Source: Escherichia coli (lineage in GTDB: Bacteria > Pseudomonadota > Gammaproteobacteria > Enterobacterales > Enterobacteriaceae). From it: a DNA stretch of 64,000 nt. The notes under the pieces were generated by a model that worked only from the letters and a program-made list of their open reading frames with translations, ran no database searches and had not been told where the DNA came from. This document shows, one piece after another, positions 32,874 through 35,800 of the stretch (positions are counted from its first letter, which is position 1; each line of letters opens with the position of its first letter). The stretch is from the NCBI RefSeq assembly GCF_003334765.1, contig NZ_QOWT01000002.1; one strand, 5' to 3'. Made by a program: the position numbers and the translations under genes.

Positions 32874-35800
32874 ATGAGCAAACAATCACAGCATGTATTA
32901 ATTGCCCTGCCCCACCCGCTGCTTCACCTGGTCAGTTTAGGTTTAGTCTCGTTTATCTTTACCCTTTTCTCGCTTGAGCTTTCGCAGTTTGGCACCCAAC
33001 TCGCCCCACTGTGGTTCCCGACGTCCATCATGATGGTGGCGTTTTATCGCCATGCCGGGCGCATGTGGCCGGGAATTGCGCTGAGCTGCTCGCTGGGAAA
33101 TATCGCCGCATCCATCCTGCTTTTTTCCACCAGCTCGCTGAACATGACCTGGACGACCATCAATATTGTTGAAGCCGTGGTCGGGGCAGTGCTGCTACGT
33201 AAATTGCTGCCGTGGTATAACCCCTTGCAAAATCTGGCTGACTGGCTGCGTCTGGCATTCGGCAGCGCCATTGTTCCGCCTCTGCTAGGGGGTGTTCTGG
33301 TTGTCCTGCTGACGCCCGGAGACGATCCTCTCAGGGCATTTTTGATATGGGTACTGTCAGAATCCATCGGCGCTCTGGCACTGGTGCCGCTGGGATTGTT
33401 ATTTAAACCACACTATCTGCTGCGCCATCGCAACCCACGGTTGCTTTTTGAGTCGCTGCTCACGTTAGCCATCACACTGACGTTAAGCTGGCTTTCGATG
33501 CTGTATCTGCCGTGGCCTTTTACTTTCATTATTGTGCTGTTGATGTGGAGCGCCGTGCGCCTGCCACGAATGGAAGCCTTTTTGATCTTCCTTACCACGG
33601 TGATGATGGTGTCGCTGATGATGGCCGCGGATCCCTCCCTGCTTGCTACGCCGCGTACATACCTGATGAGCCATATGCCGTGGCTACCGTTTTTGCTGAT
33701 CCTGCTGCCCGCCAACATCATGACGATGGTGATGTATGCCTTTCGTGCGGAACGCAAACACATTTCCGAAAGCGAAACCCGTTTTCGGAACGCCATGGAA
33801 TATTCCGCTATCGGTATGGCGTTAGTGGGCACCGAGGGACAATGGCTGCAAACCAACAAAGCGCTCTGCCAGTTTCTCGGGTACAGTCAGGAAGAGCTGC
33901 GCGGACTCACCTTTCAGCAACTGACCTGGCCGGAGGATCTCAATAAAGATCTCCAACAGGTTGAAAAGCTGATAAGCGGTGAAATAAACACCTATTCAAT
34001 GGAAAAACGCTACTACAACCGCAATGGCGATGTTGTCTGGGCGTTGCTTGCCGTCTCACTGGTGCGCCACACGGATGGCACGCCGCTCTATTTTATCGCT
34101 CAGATTGAAGACATTAACGAGCTAAAACGCACCGAACAGGTGAATCAGCAACTGATGGAGCGCATCACGCTGGCTAACGAAGCGGGCGGGATTGGCATCT
34201 GGGAGTGGGAGTTGAAGCCGAATATTTTTAGCTGGGATAAGCGGATGTTCGAGCTGTATGAAATTCCTCCACATATCAAACCGAACTGGCAGGTGTGGTA
34301 CGAGTGCGTGCTGCCGGAAGATCGCCAGCATGCCGAAAAAGTGATTCGTGATTCGTTGCAATCACGCTCGCCCTTTAAACTGGAATTTCGCATTACCGTA
34401 AAAGACGGTATTCGCCATATCCGCGCCCTCGCCAACCGGGTACTGAATAAAGAAGGCGAAGTCGAACGCCTGCTCGGCATTAATATGGATATGACTGAGG
34501 TTAAACAGCTTAACGAGGCATTGTTTCAGGAAAAAGAGCGCCTGCACATAACGCTGGACTCCATCGGCGAAGCCGTGGTCTGTATTGATATGGCAATGAA
34601 AATTACCTTTATGAATCCAGTGGCGGAGAAGATGAGCGGCTGGACGCAGGAAGAAGCATTAGGTGTTCCGCTCCTGACGGTGTTGCATATTACCTTTGGC
34701 GACAATGGTCCCCTGATGGAGAACATTTACAGTGCCGACACCTCACGTTCCGCGATTGAACAAGATGTGGTGTTGCACTGCCGGAGCGGCGGCAGCTACG
34801 ACGTGCATTACAGTATTACGCCGTTAAGTACTCTGGACGGCAGCAATATTGGTTCGGTTCTGGTGATTCAGGACGTTACCGAATCACGCAAAATGCTGCG
34901 CCAGCTGAGCTACAGCGCCTCCCATGATGCACTGACGCATCTCGCCAATCGCGCCAGTTTTGAGAAGCAACTGCGTATGCTGCTGCAAACGGTAAACAGT
35001 ACACATCAGCGACATGCCCTGGTGTTTATCGATCTTGATCGCTTTAAAGCGGTGAATGACAGCGGCGGGCGACGCTTTGCTGCGCGAACTGGCGTCGTTG
35101 ATGCTGAGTATGCTGCGTTCCAGCGACGTGCTGGCGCGACTCGGTGGGGATGAATTTGGTCTGCTGCTACCAGACTGTAATGTTGAAAGCGCGCGTTTTA
35201 TCGCTACACGCATTATCAGTGCCGTGAATGACTATCACTTTATATGGGAAGGCCGTGTGCATCGGGTAGGTGCCAGTGCCGGGATTACCTTGATTGATGA
35301 CAACAATCATCAGGCGGCAGAAGTGATGTCGCAGGCTGATATCGCCTGTTATGCCTCCAAAAATGGTGGACGGGGCCGGGTGACGGTTTACGAACCACAG
35401 CAAGCTGCCGCACATAGCGAACGGGCGGCGATGTCGCTTGATGAACAGTGGCGGATGATTAAAGAGAATCAGTTGATGATGATGGCCCACGGTGTCGCTT
35501 CGCCGCGGATCCCGGAAGCGCGTAATTTGTGGCTGATTTCGCTTAAACTCTGGAGTTGCGAAGGCGAGATTATTGATGAACAAAAATTTCGTCGTAGCTT
35601 CAGCGATCCGGCACTTAGCCATGCTCTTGACCGACGGGTATTCCACGAATTTTTCCAGCTGGCCGCAAAAGCGGTTGCCAGTAAAGGCATAAGCATCGCC
35701 CTCCCCCTTTCCGTTGCCGGTTTGAGTAGCGCCACGCTGGTGAATGATCTGCTTGAGCAGCTGGAAAATAGCCCTCTACCACCACGGTTATTACATCTGA

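Follow-up and report, generated by a model that had tools for sequence, protein, structure and literature searches.

DgcE (YegE) is the top-level cyclase that triggers the production of CsgD, curli and pEtN-cellulose. Its input to PdeR-DgcM-MlrA/csgD requires the catalytic motif, and exchange of GGDEF for GGAAF (D763A/E764A) is equivalent to full deletion of dgcE with respect to CsgD and matrix (PMC6510439). The MASE1 and PAS3 regions are also essential for DgcE activity, and the MASE1 domain drives rapid proteolysis of the protein (PMC6510439).

Natural interruptions of dgcE have been described. In soil-persistent phylogroup B1 E. coli, a 1456delC mutation (H486fs) abolishes CsgD and curli production, and wild-type dgcE supplied in trans complements the defect fully (Somorin et al., 2018; PMC6029578). 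The dgcE gene of S. flexneri 2457T (S2255) has an IS-associated interruption whose stop, at residue 366, leaves the downstream GGDEF domain intact, and residual synthesis of c-di-GMP has been measured (PMC11327459). According to that paper, an earlier survey listed nine pathogenic E. coli strains in which dgcE is a pseudogene (Povolotsky and Hengge, 2016, as cited in PMC11327459).

The dgcE allele analysed here lies in a 64,000-nt stretch of E. coli DNA (the window). Like H486fs, it is a natural dgcE frameshift that removes the GGDEF active site. However, H486fs lacks one base at codon 486, in the PAS-coding part, and is found in one clonal cluster, whereas the window allele lacks 11 nt at codon 731, within the GGDEF domain, apparently through a repeat-mediated event, and occurs in several backgrounds. 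Like S. flexneri dgcE and other ‘degenerate’ cyclase pseudogenes, the gene is interrupted in a natural isolate and has its C-terminal part in a separate frame or ORF. In contrast to S. flexneri, the GGDEF domain itself is split, and for this reason residual activity is not expected. Full-text literature searches, which did not extend to the Povolotsky and Hengge (2016) survey, returned no description of the 11-bp allele. The allele appears to be new, although RefSeq already marks it as a pseudogene and other loss-of-function alleles of dgcE are known. Its sole non-routine aspect is repeat-mediated recurrence; otherwise, it is an ordinary loss-of-function pseudogene of a known biofilm regulator.

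The gene was identified by its position between udk and alkA and by near-identity to K-12. The flanking genes, asmA-dcd-udk on one side and alkA-yegD-yegI on the other, are the same as in annotated genomes (H3, LR-45 and BS15R-A). Alignment with dgcE of K-12 (DH5alpha) gives no mismatches and a single gap of 11 columns, so that the locus measures 3307 nt against 3318 nt (1105 aa) in K-12. An initial annotation, made from the sequence alone, had named the gene, estimated the loss at about 11 nt from an expected length of 1105 aa and 3318 nt, and asked for the pairwise comparison with K-12. The alignment confirms the gene, the size of the loss and the expected length, and defines the missing bases, which the reference retains. 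The features of the locus are as follows.

32874..36180, + strand: dgcE (yegE) pseudogene, 3307 nt, flanked by udk and alkA (K-12 alignment and synteny)
32874..35153, + strand: truncated ORF of 759 aa, with 730 native residues followed by a 29-aa out-of-frame tail and TGA (ORF listing)
32928..33755, + strand: MASE1 membrane domain, residues 19-294 (Pfam PF05231, E = 5.6e-36)
33780..34889, + strand: three PAS domains, residues 303-672 (Pfam PAS, PAS_3, PAS_4 and PAS_9 matches)
34917..35063, + strand: N-terminal third of the GGDEF domain, residues 682-730, in the upstream frame (Pfam PF00990, residues 682-838)
35062..35070, + strand: deletion junction with the lone remaining repeat copy GCGGCGGGC, where K-12 has GCGCCGGGCAT plus GCGGCGGGC (alignment; junction strings in all loci)
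35064..35153, + strand: out-of-frame tail GGRRFAARTGVVDAEYAAFQRRAGATRWG and stop, the TGA (35151-35153) lying within the codons of the GGDEF motif
35068..36180, + strand: rest of the native frame, from G736 to the end, detached from the gene start (raw sequence, ORFs and Pfam)
35116-35127, + strand: I-site RSSD, residues 752-755, in the detached native frame
35143-35157, + strand: GGDEF motif, residues 761-765, in the detached frame (D763/E764 numbering agrees with PMC6510439)
about 35551-36126, + strand: degenerate EAL domain, in the detached native frame

The ORF that starts at the native position encodes MASE1, three PAS domains and the first 49 residues of the GGDEF domain (Pfam coordinates from the K-12 protein). 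Its native part ends DLDRFKAVNDS and its C-terminus reads FIDLDRFKAVNDSGGRRFAARTGVVDAEYAAFQRRAGATRWG before the stop at 35151-35153, where the initial annotation had placed the end of the frame. In the raw sequence, AAT GAC AGC (N728 D729 S730) occupies 35055-35063, with S730, the last native codon, at 35061-35063. The four bases GGCG follow (35064-35067), and the native frame is picked up at 35068 as GGC GAC GCT TTG CTG (G736 D A L L). Only 4 nt therefore separate S730 from G736, where about five codons had been expected and K-12 has 15 nt (A G H A A). A second ORF, 35056..36180 (+), begins MTAAGDALLRELASLMLSMLRSSDVLARLGGDEFGLL.

The domains of the MASE1-3xPAS-GGDEF-degenerate EAL architecture are thus all encoded, across two frames rather than in one 1105-aa polypeptide. 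The break was first described as being at the start of the GGDEF domain. It is indeed inside that domain, but about one third of the way in, 49 residues from its beginning (Pfam 682-838) and upstream of both the I-site and the GGDEF motif. A contiguous GGDEF domain, joining the N-terminal substrate/metal-binding strand to a GG(D/E)EF motif, is not encoded, the motif being in the other frame. The ORFs, the K-12 alignment and the Pfam boundaries agree on this internal break, which supports the predicted loss of functional DgcE.

In intact strains, the sequence at this point reads GACA GCGCCGGGCAT GCGGCGGGCGA C, that is, two imperfect 11-mers, of which the window retains a single GCGGCGGGCGA. The first nine bases of the repeats, GCGCCGGGC and GCGGCGGGC, are identical at 8 of 9 positions, consist entirely of G and C, and start 11 nt apart. 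Because GCG is common to both copies, the deleted 11-mer can be placed equally well after 35061, 35062, 35063 or 35064. Slipped-strand deletions between short direct repeats are mutational hot spots in E. coli, the lacI-type sites being the classical case. As at those sites, the deletion at dgcE equals the repeat period in length (11 nt), is flanked by the repeat, leaves one copy behind, has alternative breakpoints and recurs independently, whereas the dgcE site differs from lacI-type hot spots in having only two imperfect copies (8/9 identical). The alternative breakpoints lie inside the repeat: GCGCCGGGC remains in strain BS15R-A and in sequencing run ERR4220707, and GCGGCGGGC remains in the window and in 10 other loci. 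The loss of one repeat period with one copy kept bears the signature of replication slippage.

A custom scan of K-12 dgcE for direct repeats (at least 8/9 matches, offset 4-30 nt) found ten, of which only three have a frame-shifting offset; among these three, the repeat with the 11-nt offset is the only one that is 100% G+C. A search based on exact 6-nt seeds did not report it, since the longest exact blocks shared by the two copies are GCG and CGGGC (3 and 5 nt). With two copies in intact strains and one after deletion, the site does not have the character of a phase-variable locus; nor does it resemble a programmed frameshift, as no Rfam element lies there and local folding is no better than that of shuffled sequence. 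The deletion is effectively irreversible, and the site is therefore no phase-variable contingency tract. A hairpin joining the repeats was also considered, and was dropped because neither the two K-12 strands nor the junction of the window folded, as DNA, with energies better than those of shuffles. A second short tandem direct repeat, ATGCTGAGT ATGCTGCGT, occurs directly downstream of the deletion in the GGDEF-coding region (35101-35118; L003 3739-3756 in K-12). It has a period of 9, encodes MLS MLR and is a potential slippage site, in this instance an in-frame one.

The nearest complete genome to the window is that of strain H3 (human faeces, Mexico), whose dgcE is intact and encodes the K-12 protein WP_000043694.1. 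In alignment, the window is identical to H3 from 25920 to 39994 except for the 11 nt, and from 39001 to 64000 there are only 7 substitutions, five of them clustered in one sib/ibs repeat. Judged by this near-identity, the deletion is a recent event in the lineage of the window.

The same place is deleted in two of 5426 complete RefSeq E. coli genomes, LR-45 and BS15R-A, in a collection that does not include the strain of the window. PGAP calls both loci ‘dgcE, frameshifted’ pseudogenes of 3307 nt. LR-45 is 100% identical to the window over a 90-nt junction query and has the same junction despite 60 differing sites in the surrounding 6.2 kb. Other carriers differ from the window within this 6.2 kb at 8 sites (loci L006 and L008), 26 sites (L010) and 43 sites (L009). 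When compared with intact genomes over 13 kb, L009 differs from strain 89-3156, and L006 from strain OkiPb01685, by one substitution plus the 11-nt gap. Thus, for each of three carrier haplotypes there is an intact near-twin that differs by 0-1 substitutions over 13-14 kb. For L010 and LR-45, the search for an intact twin returned nothing close (about 37 mismatches over 13 kb for L010, a figure derived from the bit score, and a best match of 98.9% for LR-45), and so the case for the independence of these two is made by haplotype distance. The LR-45-type product is carried by 17 contigs, and the five that were compared differ from one another by 0-10 substitutions; such apparent clonal spread suggests that the allele can persist and expand clonally.

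BS15R-A and ERR4220707, which are 1 mismatch apart in 8 kb, keep GCGCCGGGC rather than GCGGCGGGC, and therefore their breakpoint is on the other side of the single inter-repeat mismatch. No more than 4 SNPs separate this C-type haplotype from the G-type carrier L006. A second slippage event is far more likely than a point mutation from G to C at precisely the mismatched position. The junctions thus indicate at least two deletion events at the dgcE site, the C-type junction alone being unambiguous proof of the second. The haplotypes suggest that there were probably four to six events in total, and that most occurrences are independent.

An alternative is that one ancient deletion was carried between lineages by homologous recombination, with no recurrent hot spot. 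The junction is indeed identical in all G-type carriers, and dgcE differs by 0-4 SNPs among them; because the gene is near-identical among A/B1 haplotypes, import of a tract of 3.4 kb or less could leave no trace. However, very few genomes carry the allele, an intact and near-identical twin exists for each of three carrier haplotypes, and the alternative breakpoint of BS15R-A and ERR4220707, 4 SNPs from L006, calls for at least two events in any case. We therefore consider transfer of a single deletion improbable, and favor recurrent slippage at the repeat. A more ambitious reading is that this GC-rich repeat is a species-wide hot spot serving as a one-step, near-irreversible route to switching off DgcE, curli and cellulose, taken in at least four to six unrelated backgrounds, with clonal expansion in the LR-45-like lineage (17 contigs), through parallel positive selection for matrix loss in hosts rather than neutral decay. 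We regard this extension as possible, and on balance doubtful.

Another reading is that the split gene still functions, by +1 ribosomal frameshifting somewhere in the interval 35064 to 35150 or by translation restarting at ATG 35056 or ATG 35101, as has been proposed for degenerate Shigella cyclases. Precedent comes from S. flexneri, where dgcE with a premature stop still raises c-di-GMP (PMC11327459). Moreover, only in the deletion allele does ATG 35056 share a frame with the C-terminal part, and it and further in-frame ATGs downstream could give low-level restart products. The break in the window, in contrast, sits inside the GGDEF domain as delimited by Pfam. In a degenerate but active cyclase of the S. 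flexneri kind, the stop precedes the GGDEF domain, which is whole and can be translated from an internal start, whereas the downstream ORFs here begin at the equivalent of residue 732 or later. Restart products, whether from ATG 35056 or from ATG 35101 as chosen by gene callers, would lack about the first 50 residues of the domain and all PAS domains. The missing residues 682-735 include the DLD strand, which we take to be the metal-binding strand, and N728, the roles of both being assumed from PleD-type GGDEF structures. PAS3, which is essential for DgcE activity (PMC6510439), would also be absent. A full-length frameshifted product would still be without the conserved AGHA segment. No obvious Shine-Dalgarno sequence precedes ATG 35056 or ATG 35101, no Rfam frameshift element was found in the whole window, and no significant local structure was detected (z = -0.45 to 0.23 versus shuffled sequence). 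We consider it highly improbable that the split gene still works.

The initial annotation had also raised the possibility of sequencing error. Exact-protein look-up recovered the 759-aa product in NCBI (CAM3710862.1 and GDS72468.1) and in Logan assemblies, on contigs of at least six separate assemblies or runs (GCA_005395605.1, GCA_965137835.1, DRR103219, SRR13532089, SRR29834320 and ERR271232). The contig from ERR271232, which is seen in 6 samples, matches the window with 100% identity along 19,218 nt, and the contig from GCA_965137835.1 has 5 differing positions in 22 kb. Independent runs and assemblers agree, and loss of the 11 nt as an artefact is very unlikely. That dgcE is truly intact and the bases were lost in silico might be argued from the presence of the deletion in just 2 of 5426 complete genomes and from the GC-rich, locally repetitive nature of the locus, yet the chance of this is very slight, given that the identical allele was assembled independently in six assemblies or runs, that LR-45 and BS15R-A are complete genomes, that an 11-nt loss is atypical of homopolymer or base-calling errors, and that a 9-nt repeat cannot collapse at the usual assembly k-mer sizes.

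It is thus very probable that a real 11-bp deletion, made by slipped-strand mispairing, turned dgcE into a pseudogene, and that the strain should behave as a dgcE null. Mispairing between the imperfect, all-G+C 9-nt repeats GCGCCGGGC and GCGGCGGGC would delete 11 bp. Translation from the native start would then yield MASE1 through PAS3 and 49 GGDEF residues, shift frame after S730 and stop 29 codons on. What remains of the GGDEF domain (guanine-binding GD, I-site and GGDEF motif) and the degenerate EAL domain would be left in another frame without start signals. Because the frame break splits the GGDEF domain, no polypeptide with a complete cyclase domain is expected, although the MASE1-PAS3 fragment may be made and might then either titrate RdcA/RdcB or merely be broken down. 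The predicted null phenotype is weak activation of the PdeR-DgcM-MlrA switch, leading to low CsgD and little curli or pEtN-cellulose. By analogy with published K-12 genetics, this strain should be low in CsgD, curli and cellulose.

A carrier strain is therefore predicted to be matrix-poor in standard rdar conditions, which bears on how biofilm, adhesion and host-interaction phenotypes are read. The junction strings GACAGCGGCGGGCGAC or GACAGCGCCGGGCGAC provide an easily typed marker with which selection for the loss of DgcE signalling can be looked for in particular niches. The two ORF fragments are properly annotated as one merged pseudogene, whereas some draft-genome records call two ‘diguanylate cyclase’ proteins. 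The direct-repeat mechanism, the independent recurrence and the earlier documentation of dgcE pseudogenes in nature all go beyond the initial annotation.

Strain HSP425 (L005) has 0 substitutions in 6.2 kb relative to the flanking haplotype of the window and retains the 11 nt. Its dgcE is nevertheless annotated as frameshifted, by a 2-nt ‘CT’ insertion in the MASE1-coding part (equivalent to window position 33662). This insertion may reflect either a further independent loss of the gene or an error in the long-read assembly. In LR-45, the dgcE-alkA spacer has 11 and 51 extra bases at positions equivalent to 36210 and 36235 of the window, a difference that is probably a variant of a REP-type intergenic element, and alkA encodes 282 aa compared with 285 aa.

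Between yegL and mdtA, the window carries three tandem copies of a Sib/Ibs type I toxin-antitoxin system (42075-42223, 42410-42552 and 42738-42880, + strand; Rfam SIB_RNA, 142-150 bits), with the ibs toxin ORFs on the strand opposite the three Sib copies. K-12 has two copies at this location. The middle Sib copy has five clustered substitutions relative to H3 and to L007, the contig from GCA_965137835.1 (42487, 42490, 42494, 42499 and 42502), while the flanking 38 kb is almost identical. This pattern points to either gene conversion among the copies or covariation between toxin and antitoxin.

A sharp recombination boundary is present near wzc/wzb. From 25920 onwards the window is 100% identical to H3, whereas 56 SNPs fall within 23541-25919, and leftwards to position 1, across the colanic-acid cluster in the direction of galF and the O-antigen region, identity declines to 97.5%, then 96.3% and then 94.7%. 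Rfam matches at gathering score are the JUMPstart elements upstream of wza and of the O-antigen cluster (27030-27068 and 1670-1708, both on the - strand), an algC RNA motif upstream of cpsG (12509-12558, - strand) and the sRNA CyaR between yegQ and yegR (56240-56325, + strand), all of which are expected in this chromosomal region.
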